Shown here in pieces: positions 2,548 through 41,949 of a stretch of 41,949 nucleotides of DNA; positions within the stretch are counted from its first letter, which is position 1, and each line of letters begins with the position of its first letter. The notes below the pieces were generated by a model. That model did not search any database. It saw nothing but the letters and a program-made list of their open reading frames with translations, and had not been told where the DNA came from. The stretch lies in IMG/VR virus record IMGVR_UViG_2558860473_000005, positions 1 to 41,949 of that record. The stretch is one strand, 5' to 3'. The position numbers and the translations under genes were made by a program. Source of the stretch: a virus (lineage: Duplodnaviria > Heunggongvirae > Uroviricota > Caudoviricetes).

Positions 2548-2727
2548 TTAGCTTTTTTCGTTGCCTTCGCGATCTTTATTAATTTTGACAAACTCGTTTT
2601 TACCACGCTCTCCAAATGCGTCTTTAGAGTCGTTGTATCCGCAATCGCAGCACACATAATCACCAGACCATCCACGCATTGTTTTTTCTTTTGCAATATT
2701 TCCAGAACCGCATTTTGGACAAGACAT
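2548..2727 (-). CDS. Small zinc-ribbon protein (CPKCG ... CCDCG), 59 aa
   Basis: Two CxxC pairs; GGAGG RBS 7 nt upstream of the ATG at 2727 (track ORF 2548..2760 starts at a TTG). Confidence 0.55.
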   Translation of the reverse strand: MSCPKCGSGNIAKEKTMRGWSGDYVCCDCGYNDSKDAFGERGKNEFVKINKDREGNEKS

Positions 2728-2823
2728 ATCACTACCTCCAAAGCATGAGTGAGATGACAACGTAACATTGATTGGAGATTAACAATAGATTGCTGATGTA
2801 AAAGATATGTATAAGCTTCGCTT

Positions 2824-3603
2824 TCAAAGTGGAGGCTCTGGTAGCGGCATCCAGTGAGTCATTTCATGGGCAAGGATATCTGAGTTAAGTTCCGTCCAAC
2901 TATTCCAATACCCAGATTCATCCCACCATTTAACCTCGACATGCTCGCCGTCTGTCACTAACACATCAGCATACCCTTTCGGCATTCGCTCACTACAGCT
3001 TATCCAACCATCCGGAGTTACCGGAGAGTTGCCAGACAGTGCGTTCTGCAATCGTTCCAGCTTAACGTATTCCTGAACCCTGTTTCCGTCGCACGCCTGA
3101 AGCCATTGCACAGCCTTTTGCGCATCAGTGTGAAAGGTACAAGTGCGACCGTCATCAAATTGCATTTCGTAGAGGTCAGCAACCTGTTTAAACTGCGTTT
3201 GTGGCAACTTGTAAGCCTGGCTTGCATGTACGGCACCATAGAGCATGGCTGCACGGCAGGCGTTCCATCCGACAGCTTTTCCGTGTTCAAACGCGCTGTC
3301 AAAGTCATCATCCATTTCCATCGCATCAGGCACAGATACCGTCTCTGGAGGGGCGGCGTAAAGCGGAGTTACGGTAATTTCGTACTCGTTTATATCCTCG
3401 TCGCTGATATTTGCGAAATAGCGAAGGATGCCTTTCTCTCCACGACTACGAGCGTCAGAGTCCTGAATGATATACGCCACAGGCTCTGCTTCCAGCGATG
3501 CCAGCGCAATCCGTGCCAGTTCCATTTGTTCACCACGGGTAAGCCCGTTTTCAAGCGGATTTTTAATGAACAATTCAATACGTTCTTTGGTAATAGTGGC
3601 CAT
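2824..3603 (-). CDS. Phage protein with C-terminal DUF551-like domain, 259 aa
   Basis: C-terminal segment DGWISCSERMPKGYADVLVTDGEHV...WMPLPEPP resembles DUF551 of lambdoid early-region proteins. Confidence 0.6.
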   Translation of the reverse strand: MATITKERIELFIKNPLENGLTRGEQMELARIALASLEAEPVAYIIQDSDARSRGEKGILRYFANISDEDINEYEITVTPLYAAPPETVSVPDAMEMDDDFDSAFEHGKAVGWNACRAAMLYGAVHASQAYKLPQTQFKQVADLYEMQFDDGRTCTFHTDAQKAVQWLQACDGNRVQEYVKLERLQNALSGNSPVTPDGWISCSERMPKGYADVLVTDGEHVEVKWWDESGYWNSWTELNSDILAHEMTHWMPLPEPPL

Positions 3604-3798: not shown

Positions 3799-5049
3799 TC
3801 ACTCTCCTTTGATGCGAATGCCAGCGGCGCGGATTGCATCGATGACTTCAGAAACTTTGTATGCCATTACCGTTTGGTAATCATCGTGAAAATCTGTTCG
3901 ATGAAGCATGCTGCTACGTTCCGGGAGCAGTATTTCCCGCGCTTCCAGTTCAGCAATCCGCTTCTCTGCTGCTTCCAGCTCATCCAGCAGCGCGTTATCT
4001 TCATCCTCTCTCAACACCACTGTGTCGAAGCTTTCGGCCTGCTTTTTGATTTTTGCAATCAGCGCCTGTTTGTTGATGTTGCTCATTTGGCGGACTCCTG
4101 TGCTCCAAGTTTTGCCCCATACTTCAAGGCTGTTATGCGAAATCAGCGCTTCGCGAACGCATGGCCTGTAGTAGTGATGGAAAGCGAAGGTCAGGCCGAG
4201 TTTTGTCGGGCGATCGTGTTTGCCAAGCAATCCCAGGCGAATACAGATAGTCGTTGCCGTGTAGCCAGAGTGATAGCCAGCAGCACGCTTCATAACTGTT
4301 TCTGCCAGAATGGTGCGGAAATCAGTGCGCCCGAAATTGGTACCTTCGAAAGCGGCGTTAACCACTTCGTCTGTAAGATGTGAATCATCAACTATGCTCA
4401 TACCGCTTCCCCCCTGACGAAGCTGGGCGGCGAACTCGTCGCATACGTGCGTTAAAGAGCAAATCTGGATAGCAGGATGCTCGCGCAACAATTCAACACC
4501 CTGCGCCCGCACTTCAGCCAGGAAGGCGTCGGTGGCTGGGTGCTCTGTCTGGCTATGCATTGCCCATTCAGATAAGTACTCGAAGCAACGGCGAAACTCC
4601 TGCCAATCACTGCACATGTTTAGGTTTCCGCCTTTACACTCGAACTGGTAATTCTCTAAACGGTCTGCAAACGCTCTGCCATTCTCTATGGCACCAAGTG
4701 GAGTTTCAGACTTCAGCCAAGCATTCTCCGCAGCCAGCGCCGCGAGATTAGTCTCAAGCTCTGCAATTCGACACATAGCATCAATATTTGTGTCCTCCAG
4801 GCGCTTAATTTCACCAAGCAGCTCCAGTGCAACCTTTGGGTTGAACGCGGCAACATGACGAGCGTTGTTCTCTGCATTTTTCTGTCCATCAAAGCCGGTC
4901 CATTTGATAACGTCTTCACATCGTTCATCACCGGGCGTGTGCACCGCATAAGTACCAGTATCCGTCGAAATAAATGCGACCCATTCGTCTGGTGTTGCCT
5001 TTTCTGCCGCCTCACGCAGTACCTGATAGTCAATTGTCATTCTCGCCAT
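3799..5049 (-). CDS. Ea22-like (ead/Ea22 family) early-region protein, 416 aa
   Basis: N-terminal IDYQVLREAAEKATPDEW motif typical of Ea22-like proteins; coiled-coil-rich. Confidence 0.7.
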   Translation of the reverse strand: MARMTIDYQVLREAAEKATPDEWVAFISTDTGTYAVHTPGDERCEDVIKWTGFDGQKNAENNARHVAAFNPKVALELLGEIKRLEDTNIDAMCRIAELETNLAALAAENAWLKSETPLGAIENGRAFADRLENYQFECKGGNLNMCSDWQEFRRCFEYLSEWAMHSQTEHPATDAFLAEVRAQGVELLREHPAIQICSLTHVCDEFAAQLRQGGSGMSIVDDSHLTDEVVNAAFEGTNFGRTDFRTILAETVMKRAAGYHSGYTATTICIRLGLLGKHDRPTKLGLTFAFHHYYRPCVREALISHNSLEVWGKTWSTGVRQMSNINKQALIAKIKKQAESFDTVVLREDEDNALLDELEAAEKRIAELEAREILLPERSSMLHRTDFHDDYQTVMAYKVSEVIDAIRAAGIRIKGE

Positions 5050-5702
5050 CCTTCACAGTTGTAATCACTACAGCCTTCAAAATCATATGGGCTGTACTGC
5101 CAGGTTATTTTTCCGCAATGCGGACAATTCCAACGCACCTTCCCGCTTCGCGACTTCTTTCTTCTGTTCTGCTCTTTCAACCAGTCAGGCATGACCAAAC
5201 CTGCGCCCTGAACCATTGTTCTGCGGTTAAATTTATTGATATTGAACGTCCGGCGCTTTGCTGCATCAGCAATGGAAAATGGCAACCAAACTATTCCTGG
5301 TTCGTTTTTGTTGGCGACGCTAAAGATGGTAGCTTTACTGAAGTCATCTGTTGGCAATCCACCGTGTTGAAGCCAGTAAACATCGTTGCCGTTCCAGCTA
5401 CCTTTTTTGTAGGCCACATACGCAGTGCAATCTGACTTAATCAGGCTTTCTGTAGGGATGTACTGGCAATCAACGTGCCACACTGCCATTGCATCCACGC
5501 TATCAGCGCAAACAGGCTGATCGATATCTCGCCCACAATTCCAGGCTTTTTGGGCTTTTTCCAGCGTGTAAACATGAGCGCGATCGATATCAGAACTGTA
5601 ACCATTGCCGTTATGGCAATGGAATGAAGCGTTATTGCCCACAGTTTCACGCGAGCACATCATGTAAAAACGGTTAGTCACTGGCTGCCTCCTTTGCGCC
5701 AC
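5037..5702 (-). CDS. Hypothetical protein with C-terminal CxxC...CxxC zinc-finger motif, 221 aa
   Basis: ORF in the leftward early operon; C-terminal NCPHCGK...CSDYNCEGW. Confidence 0.55.
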
Positions 5703-5841: not shown

Positions 5842-6123
5842 TCATGATTTACTCTCCACGAACTGGTCAATAGCCATGCTAAGTGACACACCTAAAGTCT
5901 CGATATGCTGCTGAATATCCTGTAGCGTCTGCGCCTGAGATAACAGGATTTCACGGTTGCATAATTCTTTAACCAGATGCTCAAACTTGCTGTAATAACC
6001 GATACGGCTTAGTGTTTCTTTCCCTGCATTCTCGCCTTCTTTGATAATTCCTCTTTCACTAAGAATCAGGTCGTGTTTGGTTCCGGTAATAACGTATTTT
6101 CCGAGGTCGATGTTTAGCTTCAT
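5842..6123 (-). CDS. Hypothetical phage protein, 93 aa
   Basis: ORF in the leftward operon with consistent spacing to neighbours. Confidence 0.5.
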
Positions 6124-6139
6124 TGTTAATTATTCCATG

Positions 6140-6454
6140 TTAATTTATTCGTATGCCTGCTCTTTCTTCATCGAGTTTTTTTAGCTTGTATCGCATAGCT
6201 CTTACTGAATAAATTGAGCGGCAGGTTGCAATTGCTATTTCTTCTGCGGAGAACTTACCGAAAAGTGATACTTCGGCTCTTGTCCATCGTCTTCCACGAA
6301 GTCGGCTAACAATGTCAGCGCCAATCCTTGTTGCTTTCGCCATTACTGCTTTTTCAGTCCTTTCCAGTTTTTCAGCGATAACTTCAACTGGCATTGTTGC
6401 CGCTACTTCGCGCAAGAAATCGACTTCCCATTTCTCCCAAGGAGTCTTTTTCAT
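6140..6454 (-). CDS. Hypothetical protein, possibly a tandem Myb/SANT-like DNA-binding fold, 104 aa
   Basis: Two repeated W/R-rich helical segments; inference only. Confidence 0.45.
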   Translation of the reverse strand: MKKTPWEKWEVDFLREVAATMPVEVIAEKLERTEKAVMAKATRIGADIVSRLRGRRWTRAEVSLFGKFSAEEIAIATCRSIYSVRAMRYKLKKLDEERAGIRIN

Positions 6455-6465
6455 AGGCGATACCG

Positions 6466-6954
6466 TTATTTGATAAGAAGTGAAGGTTTCCCAACTTTGA
6501 GTTGAGCGCCGGGGATATTTATTCCTGCTTTTAGTTGGTGTTTGATTGCCAGTTTGTCGGCTTTAATTGTCGTTTCAAACTCAACGTATTCAGGAGGAAG
6601 GGCGCTTGAGTCGATTATTTCTACAATTTCTGATGGTTTGCGGATTGTTACCTGGTGAATACCTGCTCGAATCTTTTTCTTGCCAACCATTTCAAGCGAT
6701 GAGGCTATATATGCCATAATGCTATCAATCTTATTTTGAATTACTGCTGCTCGTTCATTCAGTGACTTTGCCTCGTCCTTGAGGCGTTCAGCATAACCAG
6801 ATTCATTTTTAATAATGGCAAGAAGTTGCTCTATTTTATCGGTAAATTCTCCTTCCATGCCTTCTATTGTGTCAGCAATCATCTCTGGTTCTAAATCTGA
6901 ATCCATCAATTTTGCGTATTCATTGGCTATTTCATATAGTTTGCTCACTGGCAA
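6466..6954 (-). CDS. Siphovirus Gp157-family protein (companion of RecT-type recombinases), 162 aa
   Basis: Recalled family similarity; overlaps the RecT gene stop as in phage recombination modules. Confidence 0.65.
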   Translation of the reverse strand: MPVSKLYEIANEYAKLMDSDLEPEMIADTIEGMEGEFTDKIEQLLAIIKNESGYAERLKDEAKSLNERAAVIQNKIDSIMAYIASSLEMVGKKKIRAGIHQVTIRKPSEIVEIIDSSALPPEYVEFETTIKADKLAIKHQLKAGINIPGAQLKVGKPSLLIK

Positions 6955-7834
6955 CCTCCAGTTTCGCTTTGCATTCTATGTAAATGGCTTGTACGTTCTG
7001 CTGCAATTTCATTCCAGATGTCAGGCGATATGCTTCTGCAAAATATCGCTTCAAATCATCCATGTTTTCTGCCTGAGCCATTTCATCACAAAGAAGTTGT
7101 GCTTTTTCCATAATTTCCTGCTGGCGTTTCCGTTCATCTTCGCGGATATCTTCCTCTGATTTGTGCGGCATAACTGGTTCCTGATGCATACCTTCATCCT
7201 CGTTAAGCAGGTGAATGGCATTATCCAGTCGCTGGGCTTTAGGCCAGTATTTGCTGGCGCGTTTAACTATTGTTTTACGCGCCATCTCTTCCCAGAATGT
7301 TTTCCACGGTCCATTCTTTGCCTTGCTCGTTGCTTCCACAGCTTTAATTTCTGCCAGACTCATTTCTTCAGTCAGGTAGTCACCATCTGCTGTTTTAACC
7401 GTGCAATAACCTCCAACAATAGAGCCTCGCTCACCAAATGCGTTGTATTTGTGGGTTGGTGCTGAATCAAGGCCATTTGATTCATAGGTGTCGTTTGAGT
7501 ACACCAGTTTGCATTGCCCCCACTTAATTGATCCTGTCGATTGCGCAAGATGAAGTAATCCCATGTAACTGATATCAAGGCACACCATGCCGTCGCGAGG
7601 AACCAGATAAGCCAGTTTGCTGGCCGGGTTTAAGGTGATGCCGATCGCCGCAACATTGATGATGGCGTTCTGTGCGCTGGTTGGATTTGCCAGTGCCGTT
7701 TTAGCCAGGTAATCATTTTTCTGGAAATACTGAATTGCAAACTGGCTTTCCTTAGCCCATGTCACCGTCTGTTCAGTCAATGCTCCGCAGAATAACTGCT
7801 CCTGCTGTTTAACGAATTCAACGATATTGCTCAT
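6932..7834 (-). CDS. recT: RecT-family single-strand annealing recombinase, 300 aa
   Basis: Conserved RecT-like core (LAYLVPRDG...); position matches lambdoid recombination modules. Confidence 0.8.
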   Translation of the reverse strand: MSNIVEFVKQQEQLFCGALTEQTVTWAKESQFAIQYFQKNDYLAKTALANPTSAQNAIINVAAIGITLNPASKLAYLVPRDGMVCLDISYMGLLHLAQSTGSIKWGQCKLVYSNDTYESNGLDSAPTHKYNAFGERGSIVGGYCTVKTADGDYLTEEMSLAEIKAVEATSKAKNGPWKTFWEEMARKTIVKRASKYWPKAQRLDNAIHLLNEDEGMHQEPVMPHKSEEDIREDERKRQQEIMEKAQLLCDEMAQAENMDDLKRYFAEAYRLTSGMKLQQNVQAIYIECKAKLEVASEQTI

Positions 7835-8142
7835 GCAGCTTCTCCATAAATATGTCTGCGTTTGAATATTGCGAAGGCATATTCAGCCTTAACTCTTTCG
7901 GTTATTGCATCCCAGAACCATTCAGCGGCTTTTTCCTGATAGTTACAGTCATCATCTTCCAGCCAGTCGATAGCGTCCTTAGTGTGTTCATCTGGTTTAT
8001 ATGAGCGAAGCATTTCGCTTATTGGGTCGCAACGTTTGCAGAGGCGATCAACTTCACTGTTGATTCGTTCGTAATCTTCATCAGTAAAACTTGCGATGAT
8101 TTGCGATATTTCACGCTTATCATTCAGAGTCAGAATCATCAT
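7831..8142 (-). CDS. Hypothetical early protein, 103 aa
   Basis: ORF overlapping the RecT start by 4 bp. Confidence 0.5.
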   Translation of the reverse strand: MMILTLNDKREISQIIASFTDEDYERINSEVDRLCKRCDPISEMLRSYKPDEHTKDAIDWLEDDDCNYQEKAAEWFWDAITERVKAEYAFAIFKRRHIYGEAA

Positions 8143-8227
8143 CTTTCTCCTGTTCTTTGTGCTGATTGAGCATTTTGTTCATCTGACGAATGAATTCTTC
8201 GTCTGACCAGCTATCTGTAAAACTCAT
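8120..8227 (-). CDS. Small ORF, 35 aa (MSFTDSWSDEEFIRQMNKMLNQHKEQEKDDDSDSE), acidic C-terminus
   Basis: Hand-translated; ATGA overlap with the cIII-like stop and overlaps the next gene start; below the ORF-track size cut-off. Confidence 0.3.
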   Translation of the reverse strand: MSFTDSWSDEEFIRQMNKMLNQHKEQEKDDDSDSE

Positions 8228-8394
8228 GGACGGCCTTGTTGTTTCAAAATATCCCAAAGCTTTTCGAGCAAACTTTTCATTCTTGGTTGTTTAAAGTCTG
8301 CTCCGGTTAAAATATTTTTTCGTGAATGCTGTACCGATAAAATCGGGTTGAAAGGGCGAACCGATGCCGCCCCTGCAATAGCGAACTGTTGCAT
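8224..8394 (-). CDS. cIII: CIII-like protein (FtsH inhibitor family), 56 aa
   Basis: AAGGAG RBS 6 nt upstream of the ATG at 8394; FAIAG motif and LLEKLWDILKQ segment resemble lambda CIII; the track ORF 8224..8499 is an over-extension. Confidence 0.5.
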   Translation of the reverse strand: MQQFAIAGAASVRPFNPILSVQHSRKNILTGADFKQPRMKSLLEKLWDILKQQGRP

Positions 8395-8458
8395 AGGATG
8401 CTCCTTCTGTTTGATTGCATAACGAAAACGCCTCAAGTGAAGCGTTATTGGTATGCAT

Positions 8459-8484
8459 ATAAAAAAGCCCTCACATTGGAGGGC
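8459..8484 (-). terminator. Rho-independent terminator upstream of the cIII-like gene
   Basis: Hairpin GCCCTC-acattg-GAGGGC followed by a U-run on the minus strand. Confidence 0.45.
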
Positions 8485-8577: not shown

Positions 8578-8739
8578 TTATTCGCATCGCATGACAACAT
8601 CAAATTTTTCGAGATTACTTTGTCGCAACAATCCTTCTTCTACGCGGTCAGCTTTTCTATAATTATCAAATTCGAAATGTTTAATTACTTCTTTTGTTTC
8701 TCGCTCTATAACTTCAACAATGTATTTCTTATTCATCAT
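8578..8739 (-). CDS. Small hypothetical protein, 53 aa (MMNKKYIVEVIERETKEV...)
   Basis: Hand-translated; ATGA overlap with the upstream gene stop; AT-rich. Confidence 0.35.
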   Translation of the reverse strand: MMNKKYIVEVIERETKEVIKHFEFDNYRKADRVEEGLLRQSNLEKFDVVMRCE

Positions 8740-9032
8740 TCTTCCCCAAGAGCTTTTCTTATTGCTGCGAGACCTTTATTAACAGCTCCATACCATTCTG
8801 GATATGTTGTCGTTGTTCTATTTTTGGTTTGCTTAAGTAATAACTGAAGTGCTTCGAGAAGGTCAGGTGCTGCCGCTATTAGATTGGCATCTTCAATGCA
8901 TTGAACTTCCTCACAGATTGCAATATACGAACGCCAGCCTGCGCCATTTTCAAGTGAGTCTGCCTGGATGATTTTAATCTCATCGCCATCCATCATTATT
9001 TCCCACTTACCTTCAGTACCTTTAAATTCCAT
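8736..9032 (-). CDS. Hypothetical early protein, 98 aa
   Basis: ORF in the leftward N-dependent operon. Confidence 0.5.
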   Translation of the reverse strand: MEFKGTEGKWEIMMDGDEIKIIQADSLENGAGWRSYIAICEEVQCIEDANLIAAAPDLLEALQLLLKQTKNRTTTTYPEWYGAVNKGLAAIRKALGEE

Positions 9033-9331: not shown

Positions 9332-9658
9332 TCAAATAAGTGGTTTGCTGCCTAATTTCATTTTCTGGCGACCAACACAAGTCACACCCATTTCACTGCG
9401 TGGCTTGCTGTACCATGTGCGCTGATTCTTGCGCTCAATACGTTGCAGGTTGCTTTCAATCTGTTCGTGGTATTCAGCCAGCACCGTAAGGTCTATCGGA
9501 TTCAGTGCGCTTTCTACTCGTGATTTCGGTTTGCGATTCAGCGAGAGAATAGGGCGGTTAACTGGTTTTGCGCTTACCCCAACCAACAGGGGATTTGCTG
9601 CTTTCCATTGAGCCTGTTTCTCTGCGCGACGTTCGCGGCGGCGTGTTTGTGCATCCAT
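9332..9658 (-). CDS. N: Antitermination protein N (lambda-type), 108 aa
   Basis: Begins MDAQTRRRERRAEKQAQWKAANPLLVG (arginine-rich boxB-binding motif); essentially lambda N by recall; start set at the internal Met of the track ORF. Confidence 0.9.
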   Translation of the reverse strand: MDAQTRRRERRAEKQAQWKAANPLLVGVSAKPVNRPILSLNRKPKSRVESALNPIDLTVLAEYHEQIESNLQRIERKNQRTWYSKPRSEMGVTCVGRQKMKLGSKPLI

Positions 9659-9768
9659 CTGGATTCTCCTGTCAGTTAGCTTTGAGTAACGCGCCGTGAT
9701 GCTTATCTCCACGGTTGCTGTCTTGCAGCTGCATTTCGCGCTACTCAAAGCTTTCTGCTTTGAATGCT

Positions 9769-39453: not shown

Positions 39454-39476
39454 GGGGGGGATTATTCCCCCTGTTT
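39454..39476 (+). terminator. Terminator between the convergent tailspike and acyltransferase genes
   Basis: Hairpin GGGGGG-attatt-CCCCC followed by TGTTTTACTTT; overlaps the acyltransferase stop. Confidence 0.55.
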
Positions 39477-40595
39477 TACTTTCCTCATATCCACCAGTTT
39501 ACCAGGGATGCTCATAAATATCTTATTTCTAATCTTGTTAGTAAGTATCACTTCAATATATTTATGCGAAAGAAATGCAATAAAAATTGATAAAATTAGT
39601 AAAATAGTGAACCCGTATACATTGTGCATCACACCTGGATTATTAGCCTCAACCTGCCATGAAATGTAACTACCTACCTGGTTATGAAGCAGATACCATG
39701 AGAAGGAAATATCACCAAGCATTACAAAAAATGATGGTGTAATTTTTGTTATAACTTCATCATTTATTACGAACGCCACTAAGAGGAAGTATGCAATGAT
39801 GCCTGTCTTTAAATTATAACCTTCAATAGAACCATTGAAGACTGCAGTCATAAAAATTAATGCCGATATAGCAGTGAATGAGTATTTTAATCTATTGCTC
39901 CATGATTTTGCTGAACGCACTGTGTGCCCAGCAAGGATGCCTAAAGCAAATTCAATTACTATCGGATTTGTTAAAAAGCTAAGTTCTGGAGTACCAGTTT
40001 TATAACCTGAAGTGGATAATGTTACATTTCCAGTCAACATATATCCTACAAGGATAGTTGTCATTATCCATACGACTATGCCAGAGGTTCTTTTATTGAA
40101 TAATAAACAAAGTGCGAATACAAGATAGAAGTATAATTCATAGTTAAGCGTCCATCTAATAACAAATATACCACCAGCATCAACATACAAAGGAGGGTAC
40201 GCATCCGTAAAAGGAGAGAATGTTAAAGCACTCAGTAAGTTTTCCACCTTAGCTTGGTCAACGAAGATTCCAACTTCCCATGTAAAGTAGAAAGCTGTAA
40301 AGAGAGCAATAAAATATGTAGGAAAAATCCTTGTGAGTCTTTCTACGGAAAAGAATATAGCAGACTTTATACCAGATGGCTTACGGCTAGTGATATGCAT
40401 CATAATAAAACCACTTATTACGAAGAACAAATCAACACCAGCAGAACCCCAAGATAAATATTTATTAGGGATAGTTAAATCTCCATACAATGGTGATAAC
40501 CAAAATCTGTAGTGAAAAAGAACTACAGACAATGCAGCTAATCCTCTAAGTATCTGTACTGAGCTAAGTTTATTGTTCATTATTAAACCGATCAC
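39462..40595 (-). CDS. Acyltransferase family 3 (OafA/Oac-like) integral membrane O-acetyltransferase, 377 aa
   Basis: Multi-TM protein with acyltransferase-3-like N-terminal motif (ILRGLAALSVVLFHY); very AT-rich by eye; between tailspike and int, as oac is in Sf6. Confidence 0.75.
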   Translation of the reverse strand: MIGLIMNNKLSSVQILRGLAALSVVLFHYRFWLSPLYGDLTIPNKYLSWGSAGVDLFFVISGFIMMHITSRKPSGIKSAIFFSVERLTRIFPTYFIALFTAFYFTWEVGIFVDQAKVENLLSALTFSPFTDAYPPLYVDAGGIFVIRWTLNYELYFYLVFALCLLFNKRTSGIVVWIMTTILVGYMLTGNVTLSTSGYKTGTPELSFLTNPIVIEFALGILAGHTVRSAKSWSNRLKYSFTAISALIFMTAVFNGSIEGYNLKTGIIAYFLLVAFVINDEVITKITPSFFVMLGDISFSWYLLHNQVGSYISWQVEANNPGVMHNVYGFTILLILSIFIAFLSHKYIEVILTNKIRNKIFMSIPGKLVDMRKVKQGE

Positions 40596-40791
40596 TTTCT
40601 GTAAATGTCATTCACATGATTATGCGATAAAATCCATAGTAATCCATTATAAATTTTTCTATATGAAACATAAGAAAAATTCACTGAGTTGTTGAATTGA
40701 TACATCTCATCTTTCAACGACAATGTCTACAAAACACACAAAGCTTTGCACTGGATTGCAATGATTTGTGTCATTCGATAGTTAATGTGGA

Positions 40792-41949
40792 TCACTCCAC
40801 CTTTTCATCAAGCCAGTCCGCCCACCATTGCATCATTTCTCTGCGCTTATCGAGATACTGAGCATGGTTGTAAATCCCGCGCACAGAACCGCCGTTGGCA
40901 TGTGCCAGCTGCACTTCAATAGCGTCAGCAGGCCATTCGTGCTCGTTCATAATCGTGCTGAATTCATGCCTGAATCCGTGACCGCTTTCCAGACCTTCAT
41001 AGCCGATTTGTTTGATCACAAGCAATACCGCGTTCTCGCAGATTGGCTTCTTCTTATCGTTGCGCCCGGCAAAAACAAACTCTGAGACTGGTTTGGTGAT
41101 TGAGCTTAGCGTAGTGAGAAGTTCAACTACCTGGTCTGACATAGGAACCACATGAATTTTGCGTCCCTTCATCACGCTGGCGTCGATGGTGATAATCCTG
41201 TTTTCAAAATCGACGTTCTTCCATAGCATAGAACGAAGCTCTTTCGTTCTTAGGGCTGTGTAGCGTAAAACTTTGGTCGCAATGAGCGATACGATACTTC
41301 CTGAAAATGTTGCCAGTGCTTTGTTGAATGCCGGGATCTGGTCTGCAGGAAGAAACGGGAAGTTCTTCTTGCGGTATCCTTTCATGGCGTCAGCAAGGTC
41401 AGGTGCCGGGTTATATTTAGCCCTGCCGGTGACAATAGCGTAACGGAAAACCTCGCCGCATCTTCTGCGGGCTTTATTGGCTCGTTCCATTGCACCGCGA
41501 TCTTCAAATCTGCGGATTACTTCCAGCAGTTGCATTGGCTCAATATCCTGAATTTCAAGGCCGCCGATGATAGGTAAAATGTCGTCATCAAACATTTTTG
41601 CAAGTTCAGTCGCATACCCTACTGACCATACTTGCTTCTTGTGCTCGTACCATTCCTTGTAAATCGCACTAAAGGAATTGTTGTTAGACGAAGCCTTTTT
41701 CGCCTTTACCGGATCGATGCCAACCGAGATGTCTTTCCTCGCGGTCCATGCCTTATCCCTTGCCTCCTGCAAAGTCATAAGCGGATATTTTCCTACGGTC
41801 AGTATTTTTTCCTTACCGTCAATCTTGTAGCGAAGCTGCCATACCTTTTTCCCGGATACAGGGACATAAAGGTACAGGCCATTACCATCGAGAAGGCGGT
41901 ATGGTTTTTCTTTCGGCTTTGCTGCTTCAATCTGCTTAACGGTGAGCAT
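40792..41949 (-). CDS. intS: Tyrosine integrase (P4-type phage integrase family; IntS/Sf6 Int-like), 385 aa
   Basis: N-terminal SAM-like domain and C-terminal catalytic domain with conserved R...HGFRH...Y residues; start codon at the last 3 nt of the window. Confidence 0.85.
   Translation of the reverse strand: MLTVKQIEAAKPKEKPYRLLDGNGLYLYVPVSGKKVWQLRYKIDGKEKILTVGKYPLMTLQEARDKAWTARKDISVGIDPVKAKKASSNNNSFSAIYKEWYEHKKQVWSVGYATELAKMFDDDILPIIGGLEIQDIEPMQLLEVIRRFEDRGAMERANKARRRCGEVFRYAIVTGRAKYNPAPDLADAMKGYRKKNFPFLPADQIPAFNKALATFSGSIVSLIATKVLRYTALRTKELRSMLWKNVDFENRIITIDASVMKGRKIHVVPMSDQVVELLTTLSSITKPVSEFVFAGRNDKKKPICENAVLLVIKQIGYEGLESGHGFRHEFSTIMNEHEWPADAIEVQLAHANGGSVRGIYNHAQYLDKRREMMQWWADWLDEKVE

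Follow-up and report, generated by a model that had tools for sequence, protein, structure and literature searches.

Introduction

Inhibitors of the RecBCD enzyme decide whether a bacteriophage can use its own recombination system, and they are also signals watched by bacterial defence systems, including retron Ec48, P2 OLD and Gabija. Four types of anti-RecBCD function have been counted among the lambdoid phages, namely Gam, GamL, Abc2 and MuGam, and phages in which none of them is found have been read as dependent on their host (PMC12315714). Two of these types, lambda Gam and phi80 GamL, differ greatly in sequence but are similar in predicted fold (PMC12315714). The recombination module of phage HK140 was typed in the same survey as annealing protein type 4 (SAP-4) plus MuGam and as lacking both a nuclease and an SSB (Zheng, Casjens, Davidson, Amundsen and Smith, 2025; PMC12315714). 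The present analysis concerns a module of this kind at positions 6466-8394 of IMG/VR record IMGVR_UViG_2558860473_000005, the whole 41,949-nucleotide (nt) stretch of which is called the window hereafter, and in particular a protein of 103 amino acids (aa), a member of the PHROG family phrog_3486, encoded just ahead of the gene for the annealing protein.

The window is a nearly complete P22-like lambdoid prophage of Escherichia coli, and the region 6466-8394 is the homologous-recombination module of this HK140-type, P22-like prophage, situated in its N-dependent early-left operon. The genes are all read from the minus strand, in the order cIII-like gene, 35-aa open reading frame (ORF), 103-aa ORF, RecT gene, Gp157 gene and gene for an Abc1-family protein; the ORF listing and a reading of the sequence bore out the coordinates and strand that an initial annotation had given for the first five. 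The same module recurs at 92-98% identity in phages including HK140 (94% DNA identity to the window), mEpX1, Gally and Kapi1, and the block is present in 264 of 5,426 complete E. coli genomes, so that the arrangement is not a product of chance. The module as a whole has already been catalogued (PMC12315714), and what is new here is a proposal about phrog_3486, which is likely a third sequence type of Gam-fold protein and would often pair a Gam-type with a MuGam-type function. Gene position, physical properties, a shared motif and a predicted fold together make it somewhat probable, in our judgement, that the 103-aa protein is a highly diverged RecBCD inhibitor of the lambda Gam fold.

A 103-Residue Protein in the gam Position

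The gene for this acidic, all-helical protein lies at 7831-8142 on the minus strand. It overlaps the 35-aa ORF upstream by 23 nt, and its stop codon overlaps the RecT start codon in an ATGA sequence, a GGAG being embedded in its last codons. The small genes had been described as linked throughout by overlaps of the ATGA type, which holds for the junctions between the cIII-like gene and the 35-aa ORF and between the 103-aa gene and RecT; the 23-nt overlap is of a different form. Overlapping junctions such as these are consistent with coupled translation. Pfam, NCBIfam and PHROG scans yielded no function for the 103-aa protein. An exhaustive profile search brought together a family of 53 proteins, one per cluster at 50% identity and most of them near 100 aa, and 32 of these representatives (about 97-110 aa) align to the window protein at 24-52% identity, which led us to reject the idea that the ORF is spurious. 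Most members end in E-A/V-A, a C-terminus that we ascribe to the overlap with the next gene's ribosome-binding site and start codon.

The family gene stands ahead of recombination modules whatever annealing protein or nuclease they contain. In all 12 of the diverse loci compared, it adjoins or overlaps the leading gene of such a module, except that a PF27050 gene intervenes in one of them (L022). The partners are RecT with YqaJ (L009, L016, L023 and L024), RecT (L013), Erf with YqaJ (L015), a DUF3799 RecE-like nuclease (L014 and L010, a RecT-like gene coming next in L010), and RecT with Gp157 (L012 and, beyond its PF27050 gene, L022); the sequence of L025 ends before a downstream gene can be identified. 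Upstream of the family gene, a cIII gene is found in five loci (the window, L015, L016, L023 and L025) and a small Kil-like ORF in three (L009, L015 and L016). The family loci thus follow the lambda order of cIII, kil, gam, annealing protein and exonuclease. Neither Gam nor Abc2 occurs within 4 kb of the family gene in these loci, an exclusivity that is suggestive at most because the loci were picked through the 103-aa family itself.

Comparison with two other elements shows what else can fill the same place. In Dewey, lambda Gam (phrog_259, expectation value (E) 1e-50) precedes genes for RecT, Gp157 and a phrog_323 protein that are about 90% identical in DNA to those of the window; the DNA homology extends from window position 6120 to 7836, where it ends 2 nt past the RecT start codon, and it is not met again until upstream of cIII. 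HK639 has Kil, GamL of the phi80 type, RecT, a MuGam-like protein and a regulator, in that order. From these two arrangements it follows that three genes of unrelated appearance, for the 103-aa protein, Gam and GamL, alternate in a single slot.

Further copies of the family gene were met along the way. A copy 96% identical to the window gene is found in SEN22 (KT630648.2, 26495-26803), directly upstream of an exodeoxyribonuclease VIII gene. An E. coli protein of 69 aa (P0025) is a natural in-frame fusion in which the N-terminus of the 35-aa ORF precedes the last 42 residues of the 103-aa protein; the fusion point coincides with DDD codons common to both genes (window 7831-8227), and the fusion looks like the outcome of a deletion between short repeats.

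Likeness to Lambda Gam and to GamL

The slot between cIII/kil and the annealing-protein gene is where lambda Gam (PF06064, phrog_259; structures 2UUZ and 5MBV) is encoded, and the resemblance extends to the proteins. Both are all-helical and of about 100 aa, with an isoelectric point (pI) of about 4.7 and a net charge of about -9 (medians of 102 aa, 4.65 and -9 for the 103-aa family, and of 98 aa, 4.71 and -9 for Gam), and both have the motif D-D-D-x-x-[FY]-Q-E where the last helix begins. Within the family, conservation is highest in the stretch T..A...L...D.D.[YF]Q[ED], which pairs gap-free with the invariant Gam stretch SK.AI..AFDDDVEFQE; blastp gives E 1e-4 for this match, and nowhere else in the window is Gam matched better. 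The predicted fold has GamS as its best match in the Protein Data Bank (PDB), and the model is that of a small all-helical protein, as GamS is. It differs in that the N-terminal helix is predicted as two (residues 6-17 and 21-37), whereas Gam has one long helix.

GamL of phi80 (phrog_1050), which is also found in HK639, provides the precedent for a Gam-fold protein of unrelated sequence encoded directly upstream of a RecT-type gene, and in HK639 its gene is followed by RecT and then by a MuGam-like gene, as the 103-aa gene is in the window. The two families are nevertheless distinct: the 103-aa protein and five distant relatives match phrog_3486 and never phrog_1050, and the Gam N-terminus MNAYLTYDRIE, still present in GamL, is missing from the 103-aa protein. 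According to the phi80 annotation, GamL is toxic without Mog; no Mog-like gene was seen in the window.

A number of results weigh against the interpretation of the 103-aa protein as a relative of Gam. Homology at the level of sequence is not established: hhalign of the family against Gam gave E 0.004 over 27 columns with a probability of 8%, and against GamL a probability of 3.6%; there was no PF06064 match at E up to 1; and profile searches of PDB sequences, started from alignments of 6 and of 33 sequences, missed Gam and returned only noise. Foldseek, run with the model against the PDB, did not report Gam and gave nothing below E 2. The model itself derives from a shallow alignment of six sequences, and residues 41-70 have a pLDDT of only 58-66. 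In addition, the 2025 survey of lambdoid phages neither scored the 103-aa family as anti-RecBCD nor counted it in the module (PMC12315714). Lastly, the MuGam-type Gp157 already present makes a second anti-RecBCD function look redundant, an objection that is countered by Dewey and HK639, since both carry the two types together.

RecT, Gp157 and a Probable Mu Gam Type of End Protection

The gene following the 103-aa gene (6932-7834, minus strand) encodes a single-strand annealing protein of the RecT family, 300 aa long, which matches PF03837 (E 2.6e-33; 115.7 bits against a cut-off of 24), TIGR00616 (E 2.2e-21; 76.8 bits against 52.65) and phrog_148 (E 1.5e-91). It is followed at 6466-6948 on the same strand by the gene for a 160-aa protein of the Siphovirus Gp157 family, matching PF05565 (E 3.2e-36; 125 bits against a cut-off of 28.6) and phrog_253 (E 5.1e-53), and all 24 of its aligned homologues match that Pfam family as well. 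The overlap between RecT and Gp157 noticed in the initial annotation amounts to 17 nt, with Gp157 starting at GTG 6948. This start is likely the correct one, because it gives the length of 160 aa of nearly all full-length homologues listed and has a GGAGG 6 nt upstream; ORF calling had offered TTG 6954 as an alternative.

No Gam-like gene had been recognised in the module, a statement that does not survive the classification of Gp157: phrog_253 (E 5e-53) bears the label 'Mu Gam-like end protection', and MuGam is the type assigned to the HK140 module. Against the Mu Gam profile PF07352, Gp157 scores 18 bits (cut-off 28.3; E 0.0028) over nearly its full length, and such a match is found in four of 24 family members. 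Like proteins of the Mu Gam/Ku type (PF07352, phrog_491), it has a long N-terminal helix (residues 21-87 of the AlphaFold2 model) followed by a beta domain, and its gene, like Mu gam, lies next to a phrog_323 gene; it differs in belonging to a separate Pfam and PHROG family. An hhalign comparison of the Gp157 alignment with Mu Gam alone gave a probability of 1.3%, both sides being of low diversity, and Foldseek against predicted viral structures returned just other Gp157 ('resistance') proteins and no link to Mu Gam. In phages of Firmicutes, Mu gam-like and orf157-like genes hold the same place beside annealing-protein genes (2021 survey; PMC8093625). Altogether, Gp157 is likely, but not proven, to be a DNA-end protector of the Mu Gam type.

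Beyond Gp157 lies the gene for a 104-aa protein resembling helix-turn-helix proteins (6140-6454, minus strand; phrog_323, E 2.8e-20). The same PHROG family takes in P22 Abc1 (E 1.3e-23) and Mu gp9, encoded beside Mu gam (E 5.2e-29), and the annotators of Gally named the homologous gene Abc1-like. The kinship with Abc1 is remote, since blastp between the two proteins detected no similarity. A gene of this family adjoins a Mu Gam-type gene both in Mu (L017, 5482-6325) and in the window (6140-6948), and in HK639 (L019, 5973-6892) a gene annotated 'regulator' takes its place; the phrog_323 gene and the Mu Gam-type gene may form a conserved functional pair. The search for Gam and Abc homologues that the initial annotation had suggested accordingly had a divided outcome, in that tblastn over the whole window detected no lambda Gam, Abc1 or Abc2 (best E for Abc2, phrog_656, 3.2) and the gene at 6140-6454 belongs to the PHROG family of Abc1. 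Compared directly with Abc2 by blastp, the 103-aa protein gave E 3.2.

P22 (arf, erf, abc1, abc2) has a module of similar make-up, also situated in the early-left region, in which an annealing protein is accompanied by small accessory genes and a gene of the Abc1 family but by no exonuclease. The window module has RecT in place of Erf and no Abc2, for which the Gam-fold candidate and the MuGam-type protein stand in. The initial annotation, which recognised no Gam homologue, took the 103-aa or the 35-aa protein for a possible partner that modulates RecBCD and stated that a Gam or Abc homologue elsewhere in the prophage would speak against this; because a MuGam-type Gp157 and an Abc1-family gene are present, that provision would count against the idea. 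The 103-aa protein is most plausibly a Gam-like protein that has escaped recognition and not a stand-in for a missing Gam.

The 35-Residue Reading Frame

The small acidic ORF between the cIII-like gene and the 103-aa gene (8120-8227, minus strand; 35 aa, pI 4.3) begins in an ATGA overlap with the cIII stop codon, and its coding status is uncertain. It matches phrog_17766 (E 4.9e-15), phrog_2123 (E 5.3e-9, residues 1-20 only) and the Arf family phrog_2445 (E 0.08). Over its first 16 residues it agrees at 15 positions with an 83-aa ORF of HK97 and with HK446 Gp33 (56 aa), both encoded between kil and erf; the likeness does not continue past about 20 residues, HK446 Gp33 being unrelated from there on, so that the similarity to Gp33 of HK75 and HK446 (phrog_2123) does not extend over the full length. 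With P22 Arf, which holds the same position, the ORF has the motif [WF]SDEEFI in common (blastp over 21 acidic residues, uncorrected for composition, E 1e-4), and in Kapi1 it comes after kil, the position of arf in P22. Gp33 of HK75 was reported to trigger P2 OLD on its own, as Gam and T7 gp5.9 do, and was proposed by the authors of that work to be a new inhibitor or manipulator of RecBCD (2026 bioRxiv preprint; 10.64898/2026.07.10.737580).

When the 35-aa ORF is compared with its 60-aa version in SPN9CC, two synonymous and eight non-synonymous codon differences are counted, and there is thus no sign of purifying selection. Its first 50 nt are conserved and behave as a joint of mosaic recombination. 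The ORF may represent a truncated accessory peptide of the Gp33/Arf type or, alternatively, no more than a translated link between cIII and the 103-aa gene that couples the two. In SPN9CC itself (L004, 2817-3093), RefSeq lists a 62-aa 'recombinase' ORF upstream of erf. As a homologue of the 35-aa ORF this was rejected, being in the wrong frame; the conserved ORF is the overlapping one of 60 aa at 2911-3093 (phrog_17766, E 1.9e-47), and the 62-aa 'recombinase' is probably a mis-annotation.

Alternative Roles for the Small Proteins

Either of the two small proteins had been put forward in the initial annotation as the partner that modulates RecBCD, and the present data divide the two: the 103-aa protein gains from its occupation of the Gam/GamL slot and from heading recombination modules, while the 35-aa ORF loses by the shortness of its N-terminal match and by the pattern of its codon differences. 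That it is nevertheless the 35-aa ORF which modulates RecBCD, as an abbreviated Gp33, is improbable in our estimation. The match to phrog_2123 and the ability of HK75 Gp33 alone to trigger P2 OLD speak for such a role, but just 16-21 N-terminal residues are held in common, the remainder of the protein differs, and both the excess of non-synonymous changes and the recombination joint within the first 50 nt argue otherwise. The strongest competitor, which we still regard as rather unlikely, leaves Gp157 as the only anti-RecBCD function of the module and gives the 103-aa protein some other early role, such as the inhibition of another host nuclease or of a defence system, its likeness to Gam being that of one generic helical bundle to another. 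This agrees with the typing of HK140 as SAP-4 plus MuGam and of SEN22 as devoid of anti-RecBCD function (PMC12315714), and also with the non-significant sequence comparison to Gam and the empty Foldseek search. The SEN22 type was listed in this manner despite its nearly identical copy of the 103-aa gene (PMC12315714), and Dewey and HK639 each encode both a Gam-type and a MuGam-type protein.

It is very improbable that the 103-aa protein acts as a cofactor of the annealing protein, as P22 Arf does for Erf, instead of inhibiting a nuclease. Its gene directly precedes RecT with an overlap, the arrangement of arf and erf in P22, and Foldseek gave weak matches to the T4 mediator UvsY (E 5.7-8). The latter were set aside as not significant, and the occurrence of the family ahead of Erf, and of DUF3799/RecE-like nucleases that have the annealing gene further on, makes a RecT-specific cofactor unlikely. 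There is also a slim chance that the family is a third lineage of the Gam fold that, rather than simply blocking RecBCD, re-programmes it in the way of P22 Abc2 or is directed at a different nuclease such as SbcCD. A re-programmed RecBCD or another nuclease would supply the 5' resection that is lacking in a RecT/Gp157 module devoid of an exonuclease, and such a 103-aa protein would form, with the MuGam-type protein and the Gp33-like peptide, a layered control of host nucleases.

Proposed Course of Events in the Operon

Under the reading that we favour, of a Gam-fold inhibitor paired with a MuGam-type protein, the operon would be transcribed after antitermination by N, and translation of successive genes would possibly be coupled where they overlap. 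As a dimer, acidic and helical, the 103-aa protein would occupy the DNA-binding site of RecBCD in the manner of Gam and so keep the enzyme off phage DNA ends, while Gp157, of the Mu Gam/Ku type, would cap double-strand ends. RecT would then anneal single-stranded phage DNA, leading to recombination-dependent replication and to the formation of concatemers. The module lacks an exonuclease, so the single strands for RecT would come from replication forks or from host nucleases.

Prophage Setting

Several features of the surrounding sequence bear on this scheme. Two tandem hairpins resembling intrinsic terminators were found by a scan just upstream of the cIII-like gene on the minus strand (8467-8484 and 8427-8446), the first of them, read from 8484 to 8467, having the form GCCCTC..GAGGGC followed by TTTTTT. 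Because they stand upstream of the module, its expression would need antitermination by N; along the minus strand from 8394 to 5800 the scan detected no terminator-like site that interrupts the unit. A lambda-type N protein is encoded within the ORF at 9332-9748 and accompanies a cI-like repressor and a cro-like gene at 9.3-11 kb. The cIII-like gene (8224-8394, minus strand; 56 aa) has an AAGGAG ribosome-binding site and matches phrog_550, 'CIII anti-termination' (E 1e-22), with no match in the Pfam scan. Downstream of the module, a 93-aa DUF5405 protein (PF17399) is encoded at 5842-6123 on the minus strand. Neither an exonuclease gene nor an exonuclease domain was detectable among the early-left ORFs.

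The prophage ends fall at 1-2100 and 39462-41949 of the window. A LacY-family sugar permease gene of the host, resembling cscB, occupies the left end (1-1248) and is followed by a region of a torI-type excisionase, and the far right has genes for an O-antigen acyltransferase (39462-40595) and a tyrosine integrase (40792-41949), so that int and xis stand at opposite ends of the prophage. This layout resembles that of the KplE1 prophage at argW. The window itself contains no tRNA gene. Elsewhere the window encodes O and DnaB-type replication proteins and a tailspike of the P22 type.

Other early-left ORFs attracted attention in their own right. A candidate anti-restriction gene near the left end of the operon (2548-2760, minus strand) encodes a 70-aa zinc-ribbon protein whose match to the Lar restriction-alleviation family falls below threshold (PF14354, E 1e-4). 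At 5037-5702 (minus strand), downstream of the module, lies an ORF of 221 aa that has no Pfam match and a cysteine-rich C-terminus (CPHCG...CSDYNCEGW). The 98-aa ORF upstream of the module at 8736-9032 (phrog_1273) shares the start M.FKGT.G.W and the motif AAP[DE]LLEALQ with an 80-aa gene of Dewey located between kil and gam (4606-4848), the two belonging to an uncharacterised family that is mobile within early-left operons. A single Chi site (GCTGGTGG) is present in the 41.9 kb, at 40171-40178 inside the acyltransferase ORF, a count that is no different from chance and does not discriminate between readings. Low numbers of Chi sites are typical of lambdoid phages that have their own recombination module (PMC12315714).

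Implications for Lambdoid Phages and Their Hosts

If phrog_3486 is indeed a family of Gam-fold inhibitors, phages such as SEN22 that have been scored as having no anti-RecBCD function would need to be re-typed, and each of the E. coli genomes that carry the block would gain a second anti-RecBCD candidate. Modules that combine a Gam-type with a MuGam-type protein would likewise be commoner than the single case reported so far, that of HK639. The family would also supply a compact new part for recombineering and for probing the defence systems that guard RecBCD.

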